Source: Patescibacteria group bacterium (lineage in GTDB: Bacteria > Patescibacteriota > Doudnabacteria > UBA920 > O2-02-FULL-48-8). From it: a DNA stretch of 64,000 bases. Under the pieces are notes generated by a model. That model did not search any database, had not been told where the DNA came from, and was given only the letters and a program-made list of their open reading frames with translations. Below are positions 1 to 60,676 of the stretch, one piece after another; within the stretch, counting starts at the first letter, position 1, and each line of letters begins with the position of its first letter. A program made the translations under genes and the position numbers. The stretch lies in contig DASUKB010000002.1 in NCBI GenBank assembly GCA_036278915.1, forward strand, positions 30,152 through 94,151, written 5' to 3'.

Positions 1-37
1 TATAATATATTTCATTTAACTGTTGGGCTTGCTGCTT

Positions 38-1640
38 TTACTTATTTAAGCTTTCAGCAATACTATCAGCAATTTGTTGCTTTTTAATACCCATATAAGA
101 ATTTGGCACGTACATTATTTTCACATTTATTCTATTCTGTAAGTACATTGAGGCTTTATTAAGTTGCTCCGCATTCAAGTCAATATTCTGGTCTTGCATA
201 TAGAATCTTATAGCCTTCTCAGCGATTTTAAAATCGCCGTCACCATTTTCTATAAGAACATAGTAGGTTTGATCACTCGAAACAGAAGTACCTTGTAACG
301 AACTGGGCTCTTCAAGATTAGATGTACTCGCTCCTAAAATCTGAGTTCCACTAAGATCTGGCTTGGTCAATTCTTGATAAGCTATTGATATCACATCCAT
401 TGGTTCATAAGTCCGGCCAAAAGCTACTTTTTGAGCCATGCTACTCGATCCTAGCAGTACAACTACGACAACTGCAGTAATAAAGCTTACCTTCCCAAGC
501 ATTCTGTGAATATTGGCAATCCCCCAGTGGCTAACATTATTAGGATTATGTTTCATTCTAATTCTTCCGAAATTGCCACTTTTTTTAACGGTAACCACGT
601 AACGGTAAATTCCACACCAAAGTAGTACCGTTACTTGGAATAGCGCATAAATAGGAAAAATCAGCATCCATTTGCTTCTTACTTTCCAATTAGCAAAATA
701 TGTTAACACGGCGTATATCAGCATTAAAATTGGTAAAAGAATAATGTGTGATAGCAGCTCGTATAATTTAAGTGGTAACAAAAAATATATGATAAAGGTG
801 AAATAAATAAAGTGAAAGGGGTGATGTAAATTAGTATCCATGTTTATTACTGAATGCCTAAATGCACCGCACATCCAGGAAAATCTTTGTTTTATCCATT
901 TGCGAGTAGTTTCTGGGACATCGGTTTTAAAAACCATTGGAATATGTCCTACTTTATACCCCATCATATGTGCAAGCTTACCGATCTCGATGTCTCCACC
1001 GTTGAAGAACAATGAATGATTTTTCATTATACTAATCATTGTCTCTCTTTTCGCGATCATTCCGGCTCCACTAGTCAACCATGGGTAAAGCAACCTTGCT
1101 TGCATGGCAATGTCATATTCAACACCCTGTAATTTTTCGATTAAGGTCTTTCTTTTCCCGGGTAAAATTTTAACAGAAGCCAAGTCCCAATCCTTTTCGA
1201 CCATAGCCCCGCACAATTTTTTTACATCTCCTTCAACAGTAGTATCACCATCTATAAAGATGACATATTTTTCCTTAATATTGATAATACTTTCTTTCAA
1301 GACTGCATCATGTGCAAGTAGCGTTTTATTATAAATTGCCCAAGGGTTTTTAACACCCCCCCCCTAAATTAGATATAGTTATGCGGAAGCCGTACTTTTT
1401 CCGGAGTTCGTTAAGGGAATTACGGAATTCTTCAGTCTCATGGTTTGTAGTACAGAGGACTACCTTTCTTCCGAATTGCTTTATAAAATCAAGGTTCGTA
1501 AGATACTTAGTGTCGTTAAATATCGGCAAAAGAATAGCAAAATCAGTTGACTTCTTTTCAACTTTTTCTAAATCTAATGGTTTAATGAAATTGGAACGAG
1601 CAGTTCCAAAATCAAAAATTGTTAACCAAGGGAAAATCAT
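38..1640 (-). pseudogene. Processive family-2 glycosyltransferase with DxD 'DGD', a Q-R-F-S-W (QxxRW-type) motif, C-terminal TM helices and an extracytoplasmic tail. It is split into a 96-aa N-terminal ORF (1350..1640) and a 420-aa C-terminal ORF (38..1300) by a +/-1 frameshift inside a G9 run (plus-strand C9, 1356..1364).
   Basis: The N-terminal ORF ends ...ISNLGGGC* reading GGG codons through the homopolymer. The other frame continues ...GGGVKNPWAIYNKTLLAHDAVLKESIINIKEKYVIFIDGDT without a stop, so the 'TTG start' of the 420-aa ORF is an in-frame Leu. The GT2 hallmarks are ILLPIFND, FIDGDT and KQRFSWMCG. Confidence 0.6.
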
Positions 1641-1651
1641 AAATGATGCTA

Positions 1652-4531
1652 TTATTTTGCTTTAATTTTTTCTTTCAGCGCCTTGGCCAGGTACTGGCCG
1701 GTGTAGCTTTTGGAAACTTTTGCCACTTCTTCCGGTGTGCCCACGGCCACGATCTCCCCGCCCTTGTGTCCGCCTTCAGGACCCAAATCCACTATCCAGT
1801 CGGCGGATTTGATGACATCCAAGTTGTGTTCAATCACGAGCACGGTATTGCCTTTCTCCACCAGCCGATTCAAAACGCCAAGCAGCCGTTTGACGTCGTC
1901 GAAGTGCAGGCCAGTGGTGGGCTCATCCAATATGTAAAGCGTACGTCCGGTGGAGGCGCGCGAAAGTTCTGTGGCGAGCTTAATGCGCTGAGCTTCGCCG
2001 CCGGAGAGCGTAGTCGCCTGCTGGCCAAGGTGCATATAGCCCAAGCCGACCAGGGACAAAGTTTCCAGTTTGCGCGCAATCAGCGGAACGGCGCGGAAAA
2101 AAATGTGCGCCTCGTCCACTGTCATTTCCAGAACGTCAGAAATAGTTTTGCCTTTGTAGTGGATGTCCAAGGCTTCTTTGTTGTAGCGTTTGCCTTTACA
2201 TTCCTCGCAGGTGACGTAAACATCGGGCAAAAAGTGCATCTCTATTTTTATAACGCCATCGCCGCCGCAAACTTCGCAGCGCCCGCCTTTGACGTTGAAA
2301 CTGAATCGCCCGGCTTTGTACCCGCGCATTTTGGCTTCGGGAGTAGACGCAAACAGATCGCGTATATAGGTAAAGACTCCGGTGTAAGTGGCGGGGTTGG
2401 AGCGGGGCGTACGTCCGATAGGACTTTGGTCAATGTCTATGACCTTGTCTATATTTTCTATGCCGAGCAGTTTCTTGTGCGCGCCAGCCGCGTCTTTGGC
2501 ATTATAGAAATAAGCAGACAATGCCTTGGCAAGAATTTCGTTCATAAGCGTGGATTTGCCGGAGCCGGACACGCCAGTGAGCACGACAAATTTGCCCAAT
2601 GGAATATCCAAGTCCACGTTTTTGAGATTGTGCTCGGTGGCGCCTACGATGCGGATAGTCTTGCCATTGCCGCGTCGGCGCGTGGATGGCACGGGGATGT
2701 TTGCATTACCCGAAAGATACTGGCCGGTGAGCGACTTCGGGTCTTTGGCAATTTCCGAAGGCGTGCCCTCGGCCACCAGTTCCCCGCCGTGCTTGCCCGC
2801 GCCCGGACCGATGTCTATAACCCAGTCCGAGGCCTCTATGGTTTCCTGGTCATGCTCAACCACGATGACCGTGTTGCCCAGGTCGCGCAAATTTTTGAGA
2901 GTCTTAAGCAGGCGGTCGTTGTCGCGCTGGTGCAGACCGATGGATGGCTCATCCAATATGTACAGCACGCCGGTAAGGCCGGAACCGATTTGCGTGGCCA
3001 GGCGAATGCGCTGCGCTTCGCCGCCGGAGAGCGTGTCCGCGCTGCGGTCCAAAGTTAAATAATTTAAACCCACGTCCTGCAAAAATTTCAAGCGGGCCAC
3101 AATTTCTTTGAGCACCTGGTGCGAGATTTTGGCATCTTTTTCGGAAAATTTCTTGGGCAAGCCGGCGGCAAACGAGACTGTGTCGTCTATGGACAGCGAA
3201 GCCACATCAATAATTGATTTGTCGTCTATGGTCACGGCCAAAAATTCCGGCTTAAGCCTCATGCCTTTGCAAGTCGGGCAAGTTTTAACGCGCATATACT
3301 GTTCAATTTCCCCGCGCATATAGTCCGAATCCGTCTCGCGGTACTTGCGCATAAGGTTTGGAATGACGCCTTCAAAAGACGTAAACCGTTCGTAGCCGGA
3401 CTCGTCCTGTAGTTTAACTTTTTGGTCGCCGGTGCCATAGAGGATGGCGTCCACGACTTTCTTGGGCAAATCCCGCACCGGAGCATTTATGGAAAATCCA
3501 TAGTTTTTGGCAACTGAATCCAAAACCCTCATATACCAGCTCATGCGCGAAGTTGTTTTGCTCCAGGGACGCACTGCGCCCTCGGCCAGGGTCAGTTTTG
3601 GATTCGGGATCACCAGTTCCGGCACGATCTCAAGCCGGGTGCCCAAACCAGTGCAGTCGGTGCAGGCTCCGTGCGGCGAATTAAATGAAAAATTCCGCGG
3701 GTTGAGTTCCGGCAAGCTCATGTGCCCCAGTGGACAGGCAAAATTTGAGGACAAGAGGATTTCTTCATCTGTTTTATGACTTTTAACTTCTGCCTTCTCA
3801 CTTCTGACTTCCGACTTCTGAATTATTACCGTGTCATTGCCCAGATCCAAAGCCGTCTCCAGCGAATCGGCCAGGCGGGCGCGGTCGGATGAATCAAGGC
3901 TGATGCGATCCACGACAATTTCTATGGAATGTTTTTTCTTCTTATCAATATTGATGCGCAAAGCTTCCGACAAATCCATGACGGTGCCGTCAAAACGGAC
4001 GCGGGTGTAACCGGTTTTGCGCGCCTCCTCCAGGAGATGCTTGTGTTCGCCCTTCTGGTCGGAGATGACGGGTGAAAGGATTACAATTTTGGAATCCTTG
4101 GGCCAAGACAAAACCTGGTCTACCATTTGCGTCACGCTCATGCCCGCGATGCGCCGGCCGCAGACTGGACAGTGTGGCACGCCCACGCGCGCGTACAGCA
4201 GGCGCAGGTAGTCATAAATTTCCGTAACCGTACCCACGGTGGAACGGGGGTTGTGAGAAGCGCTCTTTTGGTCTATGGAAATGGCCGGCGATAAACCTTC
4301 AATCTTGTCTACGTCTGGCTTGTCCATAAGCCCGAGGAACTGCCGGGCGTAAGCCGACAAGCTCTCCACGTAACGGCGCTGGCCCTCGGCGTATATGGTA
4401 TCAAACGCCAGGGAAGATTTGCCTGAACCCGAAAGACCCGTGATGACCACGAGCTTGTCTCTAGGAATATCCACATCAATATTTTTGAGGTTGTGTACCC
4501 GCGCCCCGCGGACCACGATCTTGTCGGTCAT
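1652..4531 (-). CDS. uvrA: Excinuclease ABC subunit A (UvrA), 959 aa
   Basis: Two ABC ATPase modules ([20 protein letters not shown]), zinc-finger Cys clusters and LSGGEAQR signature motifs. Confidence 0.97.
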
Positions 4532-5123: not shown

Positions 5124-7088
5124 ATGCAAAAATTGCTAGCCCAGAAAATCTCCGAGCTGCCGGCCAGACCCGGCGTGTACCGCTTTTATGATCAAGCCGG
5201 TCTTTTACTTTACGTTGGCAAAGCCAATAAGCTCAAAAACCGCGTCTCCTCTTACTTCAAACCAGACTACAGCAGCAACCGCGGGCAGAGAATCGAACTT
5301 ATGATCTCGCAGATTGCGGATTTGGACTACACTGTGGTCCGCAACGAAGTTGAAGCTTTGGTTTTGGAAAATAATTTCATCAAAAACCTCAAACCCAAAT
5401 ACAACGTCCGCATGCGCGACGACAAAAATTATATCTTTCTCAAAATTAATGCCGCAGACGAAATCCCAACTATAGACTACGAACACCAACGGTTAGACAA
5501 ATCCGCCAAATATTTCGGGCCGTACACGTCCTCACTGGCCATAAAAGACACACTGCGCCTGCTGAGGCGTGTATTCCCCTACTGCGCCAATTCCAAAGTA
5601 ACTTCCAAACCCTGTTTTTATTATCACATCGGCAAATGCCCAGGAGTCTGCTTTGGCAAAATTTCAACCGAGGATTATCGTAAAAATTATATCGGCAAAA
5701 TTGTCCAGTTCCTGGAAGGGCGGGAACAGGAAGTCCTCCAGAACCTCAAATCGGAAATGAAAATATTTGCGAAGTCTCGCCAATACGAAAAAGCTGCGCG
5801 GGTGCGGGATCAAATTTTTGCGCTTAATCGCGTCCTGGAGCGGCAAAAATTGGTTTATTCAACCAAAGTCAGCCAGGATGTATTTTCTCTGCATTGCGAA
5901 TCTGTGGCCGTGGTCAATTTATTCATAGTCCGCGAGGGCAAACTCATTCAAAAAGAAAATTTTGTCCTGGAAAACACCCGGCAAGTGCCAGCGGAGGAAA
6001 TTTTGCAAAGTTTTTTGGAAAGATACTACCTAGATGCCACGAATTTGCCGAAAGAAATTTTGGTTCCGTTCTTGATTGATGACACCGAATTAAAAACAGT
6101 TTTTATTGCTCTTGATAATAACCCCTCCCAACCTCCCCTTACATTAAGGGGAGGGGCGACCAAAACCAAACTGCAGCCTGGTTTTGATTTACCCCCTCTT
6201 ATATTAAGAGGGGGTGCGTCAGGCAAGGGTTCGCGGGGGAGTTATTTACCAAAGATCTCTGTGCCTGTGAAAGGCGAACGCCTGAAACTTCTGCAGCTCG
6301 GCACGGAAAATGCCAAACATTATCTGGAGGCCGCATCCGACAAGCACCTCCTGGAAGAGACGCGGCTTTTGGCGTCGCTTAGAGAACTGCAACGGGTGCT
6401 GGAATTGCCGGCCCTCCCCTCGCGTATGGAGTGCTTTGATATTTCAAACATTCAGGGCACAAATGCTGTGGGATCCATGGTCGTGTTTGACTACGCCCGT
6501 CCGAAAAAAAGCGACTATCGCAAATTTAAAATCCAACGGAAGAACACTCCGGACGACTTTGCGATGATGCGCGAGATGCTGGCGAGAAGGTTCAAACATT
6601 CGCTCCCGTCACCCCCGCCCGAACGACCAGGTCGGGCGGGCCTCTCCCCTCACCCCTGGCCTTTGCCTGACCTCATCATTATAGACGGCGGAAAGGGACA
6701 GCTGAGCGCGGCCACGGCGGCAATTTCGAATTCCGAATTTCCTAATTCTAAACAAATTTCTATCATTGGGCTGGCCAAAAGGCTGGAAGAAATATTTTTG
6801 CCCGGCAGAAAAGATCCGATCCGCCTGCCCGATAATTCCCCTGCTTTGTTTTTGCTGCAACGCATCCGCGATGAAGCCCACCGGTTTGCCATCACGTACC
6901 ACCGCAAACTCCGATCTAAATCCGCTGTAACCTCGGTCCTGGACCAAATCTCAGGCATCGGTCCGGCCAAAAAGAAAAAGTTGCTGGACAAATTCGGGTC
7001 AGCAGCCAAACTGAAGACAGCGAGCCTCACGGACATCGCCGAGGTCGTAGGCAGTCGTGTTGCAGAAAAAATAAAGGCCTCATTGTAA
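5124..7088 (+). CDS. uvrC: Excinuclease ABC subunit C (UvrC), about 654 aa, carrying in-frame palindromic insertions
   Basis: GIY-YIG N-terminus (GVYRFYD...LLYVGKA), UvrBC-interaction region, PDLIIIDGGKGQL endonuclease motif and C-terminal (HhH)2 (GIGPAKKKKLL). The ATG at 5124 lies in frame in the long ORF, and a TATAAT sits at 5112..5117, suggesting a leaderless start. Confidence 0.93.
   Translation: MQKLLAQKISELPARPGVYRFYDQAGLLLYVGKANKLKNRVSSYFKPDYSSNRGQRIELMISQIADLDYTVVRNEVEALVLENNFIKNLKPKYNVRMRDDKNYIFLKINAADEIPTIDYEHQRLDKSAKYFGPYTSSLAIKDTLRLLRRVFPYCANSKVTSKPCFYYHIGKCPGVCFGKISTEDYRKNYIGKIVQFLEGREQEVLQNLKSEMKIFAKSRQYEKAARVRDQIFALNRVLERQKLVYSTKVSQDVFSLHCESVAVVNLFIVREGKLIQKENFVLENTRQVPAEEILQSFLERYYLDATNLPKEILVPFLIDDTELKTVFIALDNNPSQPPLTLRGGATKTKLQPGFDLPPLILRGGASGKGSRGSYLPKISVPVKGERLKLLQLGTENAKHYLEAASDKHLLEETRLLASLRELQRVLELPALPSRMECFDISNIQGTNAVGSMVVFDYARPKKSDYRKFKIQRKNTPDDFAMMREMLARRFKHSLPSPPPERPGRAGLSPHPWPLPDLIIIDGGKGQLSAATAAISNSEFPNSKQISIIGLAKRLEEIFLPGRKDPIRLPDNSPALFLLQRIRDEAHRFAITYHRKLRSKSAVTSVLDQISGIGPAKKKKLLDKFGSAAKLKTASLTDIAEVVGSRVAEKIKASL
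6122..6156 (+). repeat. Palindromic element copy 1 inside uvrC: arms cctcccctta / taaggggagg (6132..6141 and 6145..6154, 3-nt loop), preceded by a cccctcccaacc module. It encodes NNPSQPPLTLRGGA.
   Basis: Perfect 10-bp inverted repeat read directly from the sequence; in frame. Confidence 0.8.
6192..6214 (+). repeat. Palindromic element copy 2 inside uvrC: ccccctctta-tat-taagaggggg, encoding LPPLILRGGA.
   Basis: Perfect 10-bp inverted repeat with a 3-nt loop, 37 nt downstream of copy 1; identical arms to the intergenic copy at 11576..11598. Confidence 0.8.
6613..6639 (+). repeat. Third in-frame palindrome inside uvrC: cccgcccga-acgaccagg-tcgggcggg, encoding PPPERPGRAG, within a proline-rich insert before PDLIIIDGG.
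   Basis: Perfect 9-bp inverted repeat; flanking sequence is C-rich (cacccccg, tcccctcacccctgg). Confidence 0.6.
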
Positions 7089-44479: not shown

Positions 44480-45181
44480 TTACGGTTCGAGGACAATTTG
44501 GTTGTCTACAATTTTGAATTTAAATACCCCTAACTTACCCGTATACGGATAACTGAATGTGAACTCAGTTAAATCTGGCGGTACTATAAAATTAAGTTTT
44601 TGGTCCATGTAAGTAACATCGGCCTGCATCGAACAGCCACCCGAAGCAACGAAATAAAATTGCCGATTGTTGGGTCCAAAAAAATCATTTTGAGCATCGA
44701 CGCGCCTCAATTGTGGCAGCGATGCACAGCCCGCTGTAGGTGAAAAGATTTTTAACCCGAATGACACACCAGGCACAATATCGCCAACTTTATAATTAGT
44801 GCTCTCAGGAGAAATAAGAGCATTTAATTTATACTTGCCATAACTGATACTAGTAATCGTATATTGGACATCCTGCTCTTTCCAAGTAATTGCTTGACTG
44901 GGATTCAAATTCAAAGTGACAACCGACTGAGGCGATAAAGTATTTACATTATAGTCATAATCATTGTTACTGAGTTGAACAGGAGCAGAGACATTGTGGG
45001 CTGTGGTCTGCATGGTCGCTTGATCAGCAAGTTTAGTCTGGTACGTTGGAATATTTCCAAAGTAAAAAATTCCTGCCACCAAAAGCGCGGTCAGAATGTT
45101 AGTTAGAATCATTAACCGTATGGTGTGGAACCTTGCCGTTGATTGTAAATCTGGTTTCGGGGGCTGTGGAATATTTTCCAT
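44480..45181 (-). CDS. Hypothetical membrane-anchored extracytoplasmic protein (233 aa); its N-terminus MENIPQPP is shared with the 29955..30530 gene
   Basis: N-terminal tail plus one TM helix, Gln/Thr/Asn-rich beta-rich ectodomain, two Cys. Confidence 0.45.
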   Translation of the reverse strand: MENIPQPPKPDLQSTARFHTIRLMILTNILTALLVAGIFYFGNIPTYQTKLADQATMQTTAHNVSAPVQLSNNDYDYNVNTLSPQSVVTLNLNPSQAITWKEQDVQYTITSISYGKYKLNALISPESTNYKVGDIVPGVSFGLKIFSPTAGCASLPQLRRVDAQNDFFGPNNRQFYFVASGGCSMQADVTYMDQKLNFIVPPDLTEFTFSYPYTGKLGVFKFKIVDNQIVLEP

Positions 45182-45247
45182 AAACTCATTATAGCATCAG
45201 CGATTGCTAGTGTTTACTAAAAATTAATTCAAGCATATGATTACGAC

Positions 45248-45781
45248 ATGGGAATAATTGCTATATTATTTTTGTGGCCATTCTTAATCATTGCCCTGGG
45301 CTTAGTCTTTGTAGCTTTCGGCAGCTTATTTAACATCGGACTTGCTTGGCTCTTTATATTTTTGGCATTGATCTTGTTGTTTATCTTAATTTCACAACAG
45401 AACAATCATCATTTCGCCAGTACAAAAACCCGCATGACTAGTTGGGAGGAATTGCACGTTTTACGGGAGATGGTTATTACTATGTCCATCAGCCTGCTGA
45501 TTCCTATCTTTACTCGGTATTTGCTTGATAGTTTTCATAAAAACCTTATTTCAGTAATTGCTGGATTAATCATCGGCTTTAGTCTTACCACTTGGGGTAT
45601 GTTTATTAAGAACAATAAGGTGTTAATGTACAGCAACATCTTCGGCGGCTCACTCACAATCATTTATGTTTATGTTCAACTCTGGGAATTAGGCTCGTTG
45701 GCTAGAGTTATTGCTGCGGCGTTTGGTTTAATTGCAGCAGTGACCATCTCCACGATTAAGTTAAAAGAGAAACTTTCATGA
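45248..45781 (+). CDS. Hypothetical integral membrane protein (177 aa)
   Basis: 5-6 TM helices; first gene of a two-gene operon (ATGA overlap with the next gene). Confidence 0.45.
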   Translation: MGIIAILFLWPFLIIALGLVFVAFGSLFNIGLAWLFIFLALILLFILISQQNNHHFASTKTRMTSWEELHVLREMVITMSISLLIPIFTRYLLDSFHKNLISVIAGLIIGFSLTTWGMFIKNNKVLMYSNIFGGSLTIIYVYVQLWELGSLARVIAAAFGLIAAVTISTIKLKEKLS

Positions 45782-55264: not shown

Positions 55265-55290
55265 AAACCGCCCATCAGGCGGTTTTTATT
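55264..55290. terminator. Bidirectional terminator aaaa-aaccgcc-catca-ggcggtt-tttt, shared by ruvB and recF (overlaps the last recF codons)
   Basis: Perfect 7-bp stem with A- and T-runs. Confidence 0.55.
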
Positions 55291-56342
55291 TGATTATCAG
55301 ATACATTGAGTACTTTAATATTATCCTTAAAGTCAGGCAGATGGTGTTCTTCCGTGGTGGTAATAAATATTTGGTGGCCATGCAAACTTTCGATCAGCCG
55401 CGTGCGGCGAGTTTCATCCAGTTCCGAAAACACATCGTCCAGAAGAATTACCGTCTCCAGCTTGTGCTGTGCCAAAAATTTGGCTTGCAGCAGTTTGAGC
55501 GTCAAAATTTGGGCGCGCAGCTCACCTCTGGAAGAATTGTAAATATTTTCCACCCCGTCTTTTTGGATTGTAAAATCATCCCGGTGCGGGCCGTAAAGGT
55601 TTTGCCCCGAACGAATCTCAGCCTCATCGTACTTTTTAAGCTTTATCAGAAATTCATCTTCAGTTTCTGCGCCTACTCCCTTATAAATAATATCGAGCCG
55701 GTTTTGGAAATCAGATAAACTTGCGTAAGTTTTATATAAGTCTAGACTTATATATTCTAAAAAGGCCCTTCTTTGTTTATTTATGTTTACAGAAACGCGC
55801 GCCAGCTCATGGTTCCAAATTTCCAAATCGGAAGCTCCGGCCCGGCCCTCCTGAATCCGGAGGAAAAGCGCGCTCTTCTGTTTGAGCACGTGCTCCAAAG
55901 TCACAAGGTCCAGCGCATAATTCAAATCGACCTGCGACAAAATCTGATTTAGGAATTTTCGGCGAAGGGCTGGACCCAAATCAAACAGATTCAAATCCTG
56001 CGGCACAAACAAGACGGTCGCAAATGTCTTCCAGTTTAATTTCCGAATTTTTTGTTCGTCTATTTTCTGCTGGCGCGCAAGTTTAGGCGAAATCTGGACC
56101 ACCACTTCTAAATCCTTTTCGCTAAATTTTGCCGCAATTTTAAAATAATCTTCCTGTGATTTCACAAGAAGATTATCGGGCGCCCGGAACGATTTTAAAC
56201 GAGACAAGTAGTAAATACTCTCCAGAAAATTAGTTTTTCCCGAAGCATTCGGGCCTAAAACTAAAACCAAATCCGCGGCAGTATCGGCTGAAACGTTCTG
56301 ATAATTCCGGAAATTTGTAAGGGAAACTTCTTTGATCATCAA
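55275..56342 (-). CDS. recF: DNA replication and repair protein RecF
   Basis: Walker A GPNASGKTN, SMC-like signature, Walker B LLDDVFSELD. Confidence 0.92.
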   Translation of the reverse strand: MMIKEVSLTNFRNYQNVSADTAADLVLVLGPNASGKTNFLESIYYLSRLKSFRAPDNLLVKSQEDYFKIAAKFSEKDLEVVVQISPKLARQQKIDEQKIRKLNWKTFATVLFVPQDLNLFDLGPALRRKFLNQILSQVDLNYALDLVTLEHVLKQKSALFLRIQEGRAGASDLEIWNHELARVSVNINKQRRAFLEYISLDLYKTYASLSDFQNRLDIIYKGVGAETEDEFLIKLKKYDEAEIRSGQNLYGPHRDDFTIQKDGVENIYNSSRGELRAQILTLKLLQAKFLAQHKLETVILLDDVFSELDETRRTRLIESLHGHQIFITTTEEHHLPDFKDNIKVLNVSDNQIKTA

Positions 56343-57433
56343 ATCTTAATTGGCATCACAATATAAAGGTAGTTATCGCGTTTTTCCGGAACAATAGCCG
56401 CGGGAGATGTATCAGAAATCATTTTCAATGAAATATTGGCTTCCGTGAGGTTGTTGAGACAGTCCAAAAGGTAGCGGAAATTAAATACGGCGCCGTTCTC
56501 GGGTCCTGCGACTTGCGATTTTATCTGGGTTTGATTTTCTCCGGCCGCGGCAGAGGAAGCGCTCGCGCGAATCGATCCCGGTAGAATATCCATCTGGATA
56601 TTATTTGTATCCGGCGCAAATAACGCCGTGGCCTTAATGGCATGCAAGAGTTCCTGTTTGGACACCTGGGCTTGAGTTTTAAATTCCTTTGGAATAATCG
56701 CGCGGTAGTCCGGGTAGGTGCCATCAATGAGCCGAGATATGATTTCCGTTTCTTCAAATTTGAACAAGATTTGTGATTCAGAAAAATAAATTCCAACTTC
56801 GGACCGCACTGGGGATAAAATTTTATATAGTTCCGTAATCGTTCTAGACGGAACAATCACCTCTTTGGTTTCGGCCACAGCTTCTGAAAGTGCACAAATG
56901 CGTTCCGCCAGCCGATAGCGGTCCGTGGCAGCCAAACGGAGCTTATCGCCTTCAAATGACATATAAATTCCCGAGATTTCCGGTTGAGTTTCATTTACAG
57001 CGGCCGCCCAGATGGTTTCCGAAAGCGCATTTTTTAATTCATCGCTGTCAATTTTGGCAAACGGTTCATCCGCAACCTGGGGAATAAGAGGGAAGTCATC
57101 CGCTGGCAGGCCTTTAATATTCGTGTGGTAGTTTTCCGACTCAATATTAAGCGTGGTGTCCTTGGATTCAAGCACAATTTTATCTGTCGGCAGATTATTA
57201 ATGTATTCATTAACCAATCGGGCCGGCACGGTTAACGACCCCTCTTCATCAATTTTACCGCCAATCCAGGTATTAACCCCGATTTCTAAGTTCGTGGAGG
57301 AAAGCTTTATTCGGCCTTGGTCGGTTTTGATCAAAATATTGTTTAACACTTGAAGTGGATTTCCTACACCCACTACTCTGCTGACAGTTGAAAGACCTTT
57401 TTTCAAATTATCTTTGGTGCATATTAACTTCAT
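56339..57433 (-). CDS. dnaN: DNA polymerase III beta sliding clamp
   Basis: Three-domain clamp, 364 aa, dnaA-dnaN-recF synteny. Confidence 0.92.
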   Translation of the reverse strand: MKLICTKDNLKKGLSTVSRVVGVGNPLQVLNNILIKTDQGRIKLSSTNLEIGVNTWIGGKIDEEGSLTVPARLVNEYINNLPTDKIVLESKDTTLNIESENYHTNIKGLPADDFPLIPQVADEPFAKIDSDELKNALSETIWAAAVNETQPEISGIYMSFEGDKLRLAATDRYRLAERICALSEAVAETKEVIVPSRTITELYKILSPVRSEVGIYFSESQILFKFEETEIISRLIDGTYPDYRAIIPKEFKTQAQVSKQELLHAIKATALFAPDTNNIQMDILPGSIRASASSAAAGENQTQIKSQVAGPENGAVFNFRYLLDCLNNLTEANISLKMISDTSPAAIVPEKRDNYLYIVMPIKI

Positions 57434-57650
57434 ATATTTTTAAAAACAATAATGATAATAGAAACAGTGGGTTTGTTTATAACCTCCTAAAAACCTTTGT
57501 TTGAACGGCGACCGTTTGGACTTTTTGACTAACTATCTGTTTGGATCTTGTGGGGAAGGCTAGGATAAAAATAAGTTTTCAAAAATTTCCATCTCACTCT
57601 CAACAGTTATTCTCCTTATGCCCCACACCCAACCCACAACTTAAACACAG

Positions 57651-59000
57651 TCATGTGAGGTATAACCGATCCTTAATAAGCTCAATTTCTTGTTTGAGAT
57701 TATTTTTTTCTTTGATGTTGCGTTCGATTTTATCAATGGCGTGGATGACTGTCGTGTGGTCGCGGCCGCCAAAAAATTCACCAATGGAAGGCAGGGAGGT
57801 TTCCAGCTCGCGGCGGATAATGTACATGGCAATCTGCCTCGGGTTAACATATTCCTTTTTGCGCGACTGTTTAAGCAGGTCTTCTATGGAAACGTTGTAA
57901 AAATCCGCCACCACTTCAATGATTTTTTTGGCGGAAACCCCGCGTCGCTTCGGCGGCGTGATGACATTGACCAAAATGCTCTTAACTTGCTCAATGCTGG
58001 GTCTGGTATTGTTGAGTTGGCAATAAACCATGAGCCGGTTGAGCGCGCCCTCAAGCTCGCGGATATTGCTTTGGATAGTTTCAGCGATATAATTCAAAAT
58101 CTCGGGTTCAATGCTGTAATTTTTTTCACGAGCCTTGGTCCGCAAAATAGCAATTCTGGTTTCCAAATCCGGAGGTTGGATATCTGCAATCATCCCCCAC
58201 TCAAAACGCGAAACCAGCCGGTCTTCAATGGCCGGGATTTCCTTGGGCAGGCGGTCCGAGGTCATGACAACCTGCTTATTGTTTTGGTGCAAAGCATTAA
58301 AAGTATGAAAAAATTCTTCTTGCGTTCCCTCACGTCCCGCCAAAAACTGGATATCATCTACCAGCAGGACATCCACGGTGCGGTATTGGTTTTTGAATTG
58401 GTCGGTGCGTCCGGTTTGGAGCGCGGTCACAAACTCATTCGTGAATTTTTCGCTGGTGACATACAAAACTTTGGCATTCGGATCTTTTTTTAGAGCTTCG
58501 GCACCCACGGCTTGCATAAGATGAGTTTTACCTAAGCCTACGCCTCCATAAATAAACAGCGGATTATAAGCCTGGCCTGGTTTTTTGCTCACGGCAAGGC
58601 TTGCAGCATGGGCCAGCTGGTTGTGGGAACCAACAATGAACGTGTTGAAGGTGTATTTAGGATTTAACGTTTGATTTTCAGAAGGTTTCGGATGGCTCCG
58701 CGCGACCTCCTTGGCTGCGGGCGCGGTTGGGTTAAACGTGGGGCTTACTATTTGATATTTGATTTCTTTTATCTCGGGGGCGATCTGTTTTAGGGCTTTG
58801 GCAATTTCGGTATGGTACTTGTTTTGAAGCCATTCGCGGGAAAATGCGCTTGGCACTCCAACGACAATCCCAGTGTCACTTTTTTCTATAATAGAAGTAT
58901 TTTTAAACCATGTTGTAAAATTTGCTTTGCTTAGGCTCAGTTCTAGATTCCCTAAGATTGTCTGCCATAATTGTTGGTTGGTCATGTCGTCGCGAGTCAA
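57651..59000 (-). CDS. dnaA: Chromosomal replication initiator DnaA (start possibly MTNQQ at 58985)
   Basis: AAA+ Walker A GGVGLGKTHL, box VII, C-terminal HTH (domain IV). Confidence 0.95.
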   Translation of the reverse strand: MTRDDMTNQQLWQTILGNLELSLSKANFTTWFKNTSIIEKSDTGIVVGVPSAFSREWLQNKYHTEIAKALKQIAPEIKEIKYQIVSPTFNPTAPAAKEVARSHPKPSENQTLNPKYTFNTFIVGSHNQLAHAASLAVSKKPGQAYNPLFIYGGVGLGKTHLMQAVGAEALKKDPNAKVLYVTSEKFTNEFVTALQTGRTDQFKNQYRTVDVLLVDDIQFLAGREGTQEEFFHTFNALHQNNKQVVMTSDRLPKEIPAIEDRLVSRFEWGMIADIQPPDLETRIAILRTKAREKNYSIEPEILNYIAETIQSNIRELEGALNRLMVYCQLNNTRPSIEQVKSILVNVITPPKRRGVSAKKIIEVVADFYNVSIEDLLKQSRKKEYVNPRQIAMYIIRRELETSLPSIGEFFGGRDHTTVIHAIDKIERNIKEKNNLKQEIELIKDRLYLT

Positions 59001-59220
59001 TAAAATTTCTTCTTATCTATTCTAACAGATAAGTTATCAACATGTAAATCAATAAAAACTGGCTAACCTTAGCCAATTTTTGTAATTCATGTGTATAAGC
59101 TGTGGATTGCTGGTGCAAAGTATGTTCGCGCTTTTTTCCCAGGTGACAAAAAAGCAAAATTCAAGTATAATGTGGCAGTACATTAATTGCCGTGCAAGGT
59201 GAATCGTGGATTAAAAAATT
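59001..59220. promoter_or_regulatory. dnaA upstream region with clustered DnaA-box-like 9-mers (TTATCAACA 59052..59060; TGTGTATAA 59092..59100; TGTGGATTG 59101..59109; CGTGGATTA 59206..59214); candidate oriC or dnaA autoregulatory region
   Basis: Matches to TTATCCACA with 1-2 mismatches, in the classical rpmH / dnaA divergent intergenic region. Confidence 0.4.
59143..59171 (+). promoter_or_regulatory. Promoter for rpmH-rnpA-yidD-yidC-jag: GTGACA-17 nt-TATAAT
   Basis: gtgaca at 59143..59148; tataat at 59166..59171. Confidence 0.45.
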
Positions 59221-59252
59221 AATTTACGGTCCAAGCTTTACGGTTTTCGACT

Positions 59253-59387
59253 ATGAAGCCAACATATAATCCTAAAAAGCTTCGCCGCAAGCGGGTTCAT
59301 GGATTTCTCAAACGCATGCGCACCAGCAATGGACGACAAGTTCTGGCCCGCCGACGAGCCAAAGGCCGGGCGAAACTTACAGTCTAA
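59253..59387 (+). CDS. rpmH: 50S ribosomal protein L34 (44 aa), missed by the ORF track
   Basis: [44 protein letters not shown], a textbook L34. Confidence 0.9.
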
Positions 59388-59391
59388 ATTT

Positions 59392-59724
59392 GTGAAACCG
59401 GAATTCTTAAGGCAAGAAGCTGATTTCGCGCATCACAGGTTCCGACGCTCTGTTTCCTCCCCGAGCATGCGTATTCGAATGGCGGTTCCGAGCCAAAACA
59501 TCACCCGTTTTGGTTTTATTGTCCCAAAAAAAGTTTTTGCCAATGCAACTGATCGCAATCTTATCCGGCGGCGGCTTAAATCGTGCGCTTCGAAAAATAT
59601 TGAGCACGTCAAGCCTTCCGATATCCTACTTCTGCCGCAGAAAGGAAGCCTTAGACTAACTTTTCGCGAGCTGGAAACGGAATTTATTGCAAACCTCAAA
59701 CGATTAAATCTATGGCGACCCTAA
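59392..59724 (+). CDS. rnpA: Ribonuclease P protein component (GTG start 4 nt after the rpmH stop)
   Basis: RnpA-like RFRRS...GFIVPKK...NRIRRRLK basic motifs. The ORF-track ATG at 59299 would overlap rpmH by 89 nt in another frame and is unlikely. Confidence 0.75.
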   Translation: MKPEFLRQEADFAHHRFRRSVSSPSMRIRMAVPSQNITRFGFIVPKKVFANATDRNLIRRRLKSCASKNIEHVKPSDILLLPQKGSLRLTFRELETEFIANLKRLNLWRP

Positions 59725-59969
59725 ATAAAATCAATATTTTTCTAGCCCAGCCGCTTATTTGGCTTGTGACTGGATATCAGAAAACCATATCTCCGGACCA
59801 CGGGCTACTTAAATCCTTGCATCCGCAAGGGTACTGCCATTTTTATCCGAGCTGTTCGGAATATGCCAGGCTCTCTTTGCGGAAATCCGGACTTACGGCT
59901 TTGCCGGCGATAGTTATAAGAATTATTAAATGCGGCCCCTGGACGGCGCCGGCTGTTGACCTTCCATGA
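59712..59969 (+). CDS. yidD: Membrane protein insertion efficiency factor YidD
   Basis: CHFYPSCSEYA motif, 85 aa. Confidence 0.88.
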   Translation: MATLNKINIFLAQPLIWLVTGYQKTISPDHGLLKSLHPQGYCHFYPSCSEYARLSLRKSGLTALPAIVIRIIKCGPWTAPAVDLP

Positions 59970-60676
59970 ATTTCATAACCCACTACTTTCGCGACTTTTT
60001 AACTTACCCGCTCATCAATCTTATGGTGTTTGCGTACCATTATATTCCGGACGTGGGCCTGGTTATTATTTTGCTGACTGTCATAATCCGACTGTTGCTC
60101 TTGCCGTCATTCCATAAATCTTTGAAGCACCAGCGCGCTTTGCAAAAACTCCAGCCCAAAATGGATGAGATTAAGGAGAAATATAAAGACGACAAAGAAG
60201 CCCAAAGCAAGGCCATTATGGAACTTTACTCAATTCATAAGGTTAATCCCCTAAGCTCTTGTCTGCCGCTTATAATCCAGATTCCAATACTAATTGCCTT
60301 ATACGAAGTTTTTATCCAGAGTCTCAACGGCAAACCCTTGCAAGGTCTGTACCATTTCGTACCCAATCCCGGCCAAATCAACCCGATGTTTTTGCATTGG
60401 ATTAATCTCGGTTCGCATAATATATATATGGCAATCATTGCCGCAGTGTCCCAATATTTCCTCGGCCGCATGCAGCAGCCGACCCGGTCCAAAGACCCTA
60501 TGGCCAATATGATGCGCACCCAAATGCTCTACCTTTTTCCGGCAGTGACATTGTTTATCGGGTTCAGGCTGCCGGCCGGCCTGGTTTTATACTGGATTGT
60601 CACGACTCTTTTCGGCCTAGGGCAGCAATATTATATTTTAAGGAAAGAGGCGCGCGAAGCGTTGCACGAAGTCTAA
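59966..60676 (+). CDS. yidC: Membrane protein insertase YidC (short Oxa1-like form)
   Basis: 5 TM helices, RLLLLP...KMDEIKEKYKDD...ELY...NPLSSCLP conserved core. Confidence 0.9.
   Translation: MNFITHYFRDFLTYPLINLMVFAYHYIPDVGLVIILLTVIIRLLLLPSFHKSLKHQRALQKLQPKMDEIKEKYKDDKEAQSKAIMELYSIHKVNPLSSCLPLIIQIPILIALYEVFIQSLNGKPLQGLYHFVPNPGQINPMFLHWINLGSHNIYMAIIAAVSQYFLGRMQQPTRSKDPMANMMRTQMLYLFPAVTLFIGFRLPAGLVLYWIVTTLFGLGQQYYILRKEAREALHEV

Follow-up and report, generated by a model that had tools for sequence, protein, structure and literature searches.

A G9 frameshift in a probably acquired, processive-type glycosyltransferase gene beside uvrA in a patescibacterial genome

The closest described counterparts of the locus analysed here are the lipooligosaccharide, capsule and flagellar-glycan genes of Campylobacter jejuni and the pgtA and lgt genes of Neisseria, in which a run of 8-9 G, located within the first 20% of the open reading frame (ORF) of a sugar transferase, acts as a one-base toggle. 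The genomes of these species hold many such tracts, which are shared by their strains and demonstrably vary within populations; in C. jejuni, G8 tracts are biased to insertions, and simple repeats undergo indels at rates of 1e-4 to 1.6e-3 per division (PMC8355987). Homopolymeric tracts, mainly of poly(A) or poly(T), can also inactivate genes reversibly, as at the poly(A) tract of Listeria inlA (PMC2831843): one indel close to the 5' end cuts short a gene that is intact in all else, and the change can revert. We analysed a stretch of 64,000 nucleotides from a Patescibacteria bacterium of the Doudnabacteria lineage (GenBank assembly GCA_036278915.1, contig DASUKB010000002.1, positions 30,152 to 94,151; referred to below as the window, whose numbering we use), in which a G9 homopolymer on the minus strand (1356..1364; C9 on the plus strand) is the frameshift site that splits a gene for a glycosyltransferase of family 2 (GT2). 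In tract length, tract position and gene class the locus resembles the C. jejuni and Neisseria genes, and the C. jejuni insertion bias at G8 tracts fits the change from G8 to G9 that we propose; it differs from them in offering one tract and one allele in a recently arrived gene, and from Listeria inlA in that a run of G, not of A, interrupts an AT-rich gene that was probably acquired horizontally. The evidence so far favours a recent null mutation in a dispensable, recently acquired gene over an evolved contingency locus.

The split reading frame

Two frames on the minus strand meet at the tract. The first is an ORF of 96 aa (1350..1640; ATG at 1640, TAA at 1350-1352) that reads MIFPWL...ILLPIFND...FRITISNLGGGC, ends in ...SNLGGGC before its TAA, and is colinear with residues 1-95 of intact homologues; it corresponds to the first three beta strands of a GT-A domain (ILLPIFND, VVLCTT and FRITIS; strands E34-39, E60-65 and E86-90 of the structural model described below). 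The second, with 441 codons plus a stop (38..1363; stop at 38..40), is open directly from a TAG whose G is also the first base of the tract. This second frame begins GGGVKNPWAIYNKTLLAHDAV and continues through FIDGDT, GGDIEIG and QRFSW into hydrophobic helices, so that it holds the KNPW...LLAHD loop, the DGD (residues 130-132), GGDIE (214-218) and QRFSW (251-255) motifs, the transmembrane (TM) helices and a C-terminal extracytoplasmic domain; the ORF called within it has 420 aa and starts from a TTG at 1300. At this composition, at least 437 codons would stay open by chance with p ~1e-15. The overlap of the two frames is the tract exactly, with the TAG immediately before it in the +1 frame and the TAA two codons after it in the 0 frame. 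A preliminary description of this DNA had proposed that the G9 run splits a single GT2 gene, and the C9 at 1356..1364, the two frames and the colinearity of the repaired protein bear this out; the motifs it had named are likewise where it placed them (ILLPIFND in the 96-aa ORF, FIDGDT and QRFSW in the 420-aa ORF).

When the tract was rebuilt in silico, G8 and G11 each gave a single ORF of 533 aa, and G7, G9 and G10 gave truncated products. The expectation that a change of one base would fuse the frames thus holds for a deletion (G8) but not for an insertion (G10), and an insertion of two bases (G11) also restores the frame. In the G8 form the tract reads GGG GGG GGT, that is, Gly93-Gly94-Gly95 (codons 93-95 of 533, at 18% of the ORF). 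The break interrupts the GT-A domain between the third strand and the DxD motif, and neither fragment should be active alone. The NCBI protein HEX5429904.1, labelled 'glycosyltransferase family 2 protein', is the 420-aa piece, at 100% identity; residues 1-113 are missing from it, with the invariant stretch K97-L114 among them, and the 96-aa piece has no NCBI annotation. HEX5429904.1 is the truncated part of a frameshifted gene, and the record should carry a frameshift flag.

The same G9 is found in a second assembly. The Logan contig SRR25158533_27853 (L001; 5,882 bp) is 100% identical to the window across 3,033 bp, with the G9 included at its positions 1670-1678, and both the 96-aa fragment and a C-terminal fragment (P0001, 388 aa) are called on it; exact look-ups of these two fragments returned no contig besides this one, and neither the exact UvrA nor the exact RpoB is present in the gene-position index. 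Because two differently built assemblies share the G9, an assembler artefact is unlikely, and the assembly error that the preliminary description had put on a par with phase variation loses weight. The frame break is very probably real and recent. A miscall made upstream of assembly is a separate matter: the organism itself would carry an intact gene with G8 (or G11), and a homopolymer error would have added one G that passed into the metagenome-assembled genome (MAG). Indel errors are commonest at homopolymers, the sequence comes from a MAG assembled by a third party, the rest of the gene is flawless, and the Logan contig may have been built from the same reads as the MAG, all of which would suit such an error. 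Against it, two assemblers agree on G9 within 3,033 bp of perfect identity, and no other frameshift was noticed nearby, with uvrA, rpoB and dnaA all of full length. Moreover, from what is known of the platforms, a perfectly matching k-mer contig of 5.9 kb implies accurate reads, with which a majority miscall at a 9-mer would be unlikely. We therefore regard a sequencing or consensus error as distinctly improbable.

The repaired synthase and the island that carries it

The protein encoded by the G8 form matches the Pfam family Glyco_trans_2_3 (PF13632; E = 2e-13) and, below threshold, the NCBIfam models for PgaC/IcaA (TIGR03937) and NodC (28.6 bits versus a cut-off of 422); a search of the PDB at the sequence level found no relative. 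Among 5.8 billion protein clusters it has 131 relatives, the closest intact ones (54-65% identity, 460-550 aa) coming almost all from MAGs of Patescibacteria and DPANN. An alignment of 24 sequences shows the repaired protein running colinearly with its family through the junction and keeping every family-invariant residue, among them K97, N98 and P99 right after the tract, DGD 130-132, G214-G215-D216-x-E218 and Q251-R252-x-S254-W255; the junction itself, NLGGGVKNPWAIYNK, fits the family pattern VGxGxKNPWAIYNK. The Val before K97 recurs in the homologues P0017, P0018, P0026, L008, L012, L014 and L015, which argues that the GTT codon was ancestrally read in the downstream frame; Cys stands there in none.

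An AlphaFold2 model computed from this alignment (mean pLDDT 81.9, pTM 0.70) has the alternating beta/alpha pattern of a GT-A domain and helices across residues 245-425, with low confidence in the invariant junction loop (residues 94-109). Searched against the PDB with Foldseek, the model ranks hyaluronan synthases (HAS) first (8smn, 7sp8 and others; E = 2e-12 to 1e-10), then the cellulose synthase BcsA and the chitin synthases (Chs1) of yeast and oomycetes, with the non-processive GtrB and ArnC weaker; the top 16 matches are HAS and BcsA, at E values of 2e-12 to 6e-8 and TM-scores of about 0.4-0.5. Class I HAS, BcsA, chitin synthase and PgaC/NodC share with the model a GT-A domain followed by TM helices, and a DxD motif that here is DGD; GGDIE occupies the place of their catalytic (T/G)ED motif. 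The predicted protein differs from the solved synthases in sequence (12-16% identity), in an extra C-terminal extracytoplasmic domain, and at the acceptor motif Q(Q/R)xRW, which reads QRFSW, with the canonical Arg before the Trp replaced by a family-invariant Ser. The modelled fold thus supports a processive-type membrane GT2 synthase; the earlier label of processive glycosyltransferase is supported at the level of fold (PF13632 and the Foldseek matches to HAS, BcsA and Chs), with the caveat that the canonical QxxRW is QRFSW throughout this family.

The family marked by QRFSW and the conserved KNPW...LLAHD loop is present, at 49-61% identity, both in Patescibacteria (L003, L005-L011 and L013) and in MAGs of DPANN and other archaea (L004, L012, L014-L016 and L019), the archaeal holders being Woesearchaeota, Pacearchaeota, Nanoarchaeia and one 'Bathyarchaeia'. 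This spread over two domains suggests cross-domain transfer among ultra-small symbionts. Several taxon labels of MAGs in the family (Gammaproteobacteria, Pleurocapsa) look mis-binned or mislabelled. An uncharacterised synthase family of this kind may merit study independently of the frameshift.

The gene lies on a low-GC island of about 3.35 kb, of which the window holds positions 1..1651 (the whole spans 1390-4740 of L001). Its GC content is 31-46%, versus about 50-60% in the flanks. The island carries the glycosyltransferase gene, a partner gene of 342 aa and an ORF of 137 aa, is placed between uvrA and a DUF5671 gene, and continues past window position 1; the glycosyltransferase and partner genes themselves are at 31-40% GC. 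The synteny anchor is uvrA (1652..4531, minus strand), which lies directly upstream, with its stop 11 nt before the start of the glycosyltransferase, and whose product is 100% identical to the NCBI MAG protein P0243, as the RpoB of the window is to HEX5429935.1. In the three closest UvrA relatives (88-89% identity, near Candidatus Doudnabacteria), the order SBP - SecG - UvrC - UvrA is kept, the island is absent and no glycosyltransferase gene follows uvrA; in one of them (L027) a DUF5671 gene comes 90 bp after uvrA and is 60% identical to the gene that here lies 3.35 kb further on. The foreign composition, together with this absence after uvrA in three relatives, indicates that the cassette is a recent insertion, and on these grounds we consider the two genes to have been acquired horizontally. 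No convincing direct or inverted repeats flank the island at its edges.

The partner gene starts within the window (1..15, minus strand; ATG at 15..13) and runs off its edge, the full gene occupying 3019-4047 of L001. It adjoins the glycosyltransferase in nine other loci (L003, L005, L006, L007, L009, L018, L024, L025 and L026) at 28-43% identity, and was not found beside the archaeal copies; its adjacency in the nine makes the pair a conserved cassette. The product has an N-terminal TM segment and an invariant D165-I166-E167 (FDIE motif), and has no Pfam match. A profile of nine members gave a weak match, around the FDIE motif, to a putative GH97-like TIM-barrel protein (10yv_A; E = 0.004), and single members of the family gave weak matches to GH18 or GH97, which suggests that the partner may be glycoside-hydrolase-like (GH-like).

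Origin of the G9 allele

How improbable the tract appears varies with the null model chosen. When the whole window is shuffled with its dinucleotides preserved, it contains 2.4 G8 matches on average, so that composition alone is no ground for calling the tract exceptional. The real run lengths give another picture, in which long G/C runs are avoided: G/C runs of 4, 5 and 6 bases occur 159, 38 and 4 times in the window, those of 7 or 8 bases not at all, and one run has 9; in 255 kb of related loci from Patescibacteria and DPANN there are 130 runs of 5 bases, 14 of 6, 3 of 7 and none longer. The G9 is an outlier against this distribution. Inside the gene, at 36% GC, a first-order model expects about 0.002 runs of at least 9. 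If the Gly-Gly-Gly is taken as given and the synonymous codons that the gene itself uses are permuted, 4% of the permutations contain a G/C run of at least 8; GGG, a minority codon, makes up 5 of the 29 Gly codons outside the tract and two of the three inside it. The tract is unusual, yet attainable without selection.

We then compared the site across 27 loci (18 from species-representative genomes, three from JGI metagenomes, three from exact protein look-ups, and the three uvrA relatives without the glycosyltransferase, included for context). The preliminary description had pointed to related genomes as a check, and in them the outcome went against a conserved tract: none of the 27 loci has a homopolymer at the site. 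The homologues use ordinary codons there (GGA ACT AAG, GGC TCG GGT, GGA GGT ACG), and the single one with Gly-Gly-Gly (P0009) spells it GGT GGA GGT. A high-identity G8 protein was absent from a collection of 15 billion proteins, a flank pattern allowing a tract of 6-12 bases recovered no same-strain DNA from JGI metagenomes, and no match from a metagenome scan guided by the protein exceeded 62% identity. Tract-length polymorphism was not seen, in what is a weak test at the assembly level, with only two assemblies carrying the locus, both as G9. The window has no second long G/C tract (the longest other run is 6). Two relatives of the gene are decayed: a copy in a Portnoybacteria MAG (L013, 262-1700) misses about 24 residues and changes frame near 1089-1098, at a place with no homopolymer, and one in an 'Actinomycetota'-labelled MAG (L020, 5001-5327) retains residues 110-218 alone. 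From these copies the glycosyltransferase gene is evidently dispensable and prone to loss.

A selected switch would read these data as follows. The population would be a mixture of cells with G8 (ON) and with G9 or G10 (OFF), in which selection maintains the switching of a surface polysaccharide synthase (it might serve an episymbiont in attaching to its host or evading phages, for example), and the assemblies would show an OFF majority. The anatomy is classical, with a G/C tract of at least 8 bases early in a membrane GT2 gene that is ON at G8 and G11 and OFF at G9 and G10, hypermutable lengths beginning at about 7-8 G/C; the gene is otherwise intact; the tract stands far outside the run lengths of the window and of related DNA; and two of its three Gly codons are the minority GGG. 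The density of one long G/C tract per 64 kb is also not below that of C. jejuni, which has about 30 tracts per 1.6 Mb. However, both assemblies are G9, no ON allele appears among the roughly 15 billion proteins, the tract is missing from all 27 loci, it has no companion in the window, and the 4% chance of its arising by synonymous recoding is not negligible. The gene is, in addition, a recent acquisition absent from close relatives, and a literature search of limited scope found no report linking phase variation or homopolymer frameshifts to Patescibacteria or the Candidate Phyla Radiation (CPR). The candidacy for phase variation raised in the preliminary description is consequently upheld by the anatomy but not by the comparative evidence; positive support for it does not extend beyond that anatomy, and a selected switch is unproven. 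We hold a contingency locus to be possible, though on the unlikely side. The fuller proposal, in which G8/G9 switching of an acquired HAS/chitin-synthase-like exopolysaccharide system (the synthase with its GH-like partner) would alter the surface that a Doudnabacteria-like episymbiont turns towards its host and phages, seems to us somewhat less probable again. If switching were true, the CPR would gain its first described case of phase variation by a simple repeat, a mechanism known almost only from host-adapted pathogens would extend to uncultured ultra-small bacteria, and surface polysaccharide would be indicated as a variable trait in episymbiotic life. Even if there is no switching, the locus documents how a polysaccharide cassette of two genes appears to have been inserted horizontally, and recently, beside uvrA.

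A simpler course of events is the one we favour, and we put its chances at about even: a real, recent slippage mutation of +1 G has silenced a recently acquired and dispensable synthase gene, the tract itself originating in a Gly-Gly-Gly that happened to be spelled with GGG codons. An accessory GT2 gene of the HAS/cellulose/chitin-synthase type, with its probable GH-like partner, would have arrived after uvrA on the AT-rich island of about 3.35 kb. A lineage-specific G8 (GGG GGG GGT) would then have gained one G by slipped-strand mispairing during replication, and the G9 consensus would faithfully reflect the DNA of the organism. Begun at the ATG (1640), translation would end after 96 residues (...GGGC, stop), leaving the synthase OFF; the catalytic and membrane part would either not be made or be made without its N-terminal portion, as a product short of invariant residues and presumably inactive. 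Because the rest of the gene is undecayed, the mutation would be either recent or frequently reverted. A run of nine G is prone to slip, so reversion from G9 to G8 would be physically possible, and the locus would to that extent be a potential stochastic switch. A plain recent null mutation had been given little weight in the preliminary description, and it gains from the island location and from the decayed copies of the family elsewhere.

Several points weigh against a recent null allele. The length of the tract is known from assemblies and not from reads, and the two assemblies may have been built from one read set, so that a sequencing error could be common to both. An intact remainder of the gene would be equally expected under frequent ON/OFF switching with selection for the ON state. 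The early position, the gene class and the length of the tract fit classical contingency loci, and GGG is a minority Gly codon in the gene. Explanations other than the four weighed in this work share a small residue of probability.

The last of the four is that the G9 allele still gives the full-length enzyme, by +1 ribosomal frameshifting or by slippage of RNA polymerase on the G9/C9 run. The ribosome would shift within GGG GGG GGG, or, in the manner of prfB, at UGU UAA, with the G run as a Shine-Dalgarno-like stimulator. The exact coincidence of frame overlap and tract would suit such recoding, as would the length of the run, nine bases being that of the RNA:DNA hybrid, and the sequence GGGGGG-GGG-UGU-UAA is superficially like the prfB site, whose layout is AGGGGG-UAU-CUU-UGA. 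The likeness to prfB-type +1 frameshifting lies in the stop TAA and the G-rich stretch; the differences lie in re-pairing, conservation and downstream structure. A shift of tRNA-Cys from UGU to GUU would re-pair poorly, no homologue has a tract or comparable signal, and no stable RNA structure lies downstream (z = +0.98), and for these three reasons we reject recoding as unlikely. Counting further against it, the position is commonly Val in homologues (GTT, as read in the downstream frame) and Cys in none of them, many genes in the window do without Shine-Dalgarno motifs, and productive transcriptional slippage is known from A/T runs and not from G/C runs. We judge the probability of recoding to be very low indeed.

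We also considered an antisense promoter on the plus strand (1350-1379; TTAACA-18 nt-TATAGT), which would have the C9 in its spacer. It was rejected: such matches are frequent in AT-rich DNA (10 occur versus 5.8 expected), and it has no other support. The promoter-like match would precede an antisense ORF of 94 aa (1381..1665), and with C8 its spacer would be 17 nt.

Elsewhere in the window

The uvrC gene (about 5124-7088) encodes an in-frame insertion of 41 aa, NPSQPPLTLRGGATKTKLQPGFDLPPLILRGGASGKGSR, that is absent in the three relatives with 88-89% UvrA identity. Its DNA (6117-6246, plus strand) is a nested palindrome, with hairpins at 6132-6154, 6161-6186 and 6191-6215 inside an outer inverted repeat (6117-6128 / 6235-6246), and looks like a small element of the miniature inverted-repeat transposable element (MITE) or repetitive extragenic palindromic (REP) kind that inserted in frame.

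Further along, a recF-like gene (55275-56342, minus strand), dnaN (56339-57433, minus strand), dnaA (57651-59000, minus strand) and yidC (59966-60676, plus strand) are clustered (55275-60676), so that the chromosomal origin region probably lies in the window; it may explain the lower GC at 56-59 kb. A second low-GC patch (44480-45781; 38-41% GC), with two ORFs of 233 and 177 aa that have no Pfam match, may be another small acquired island.

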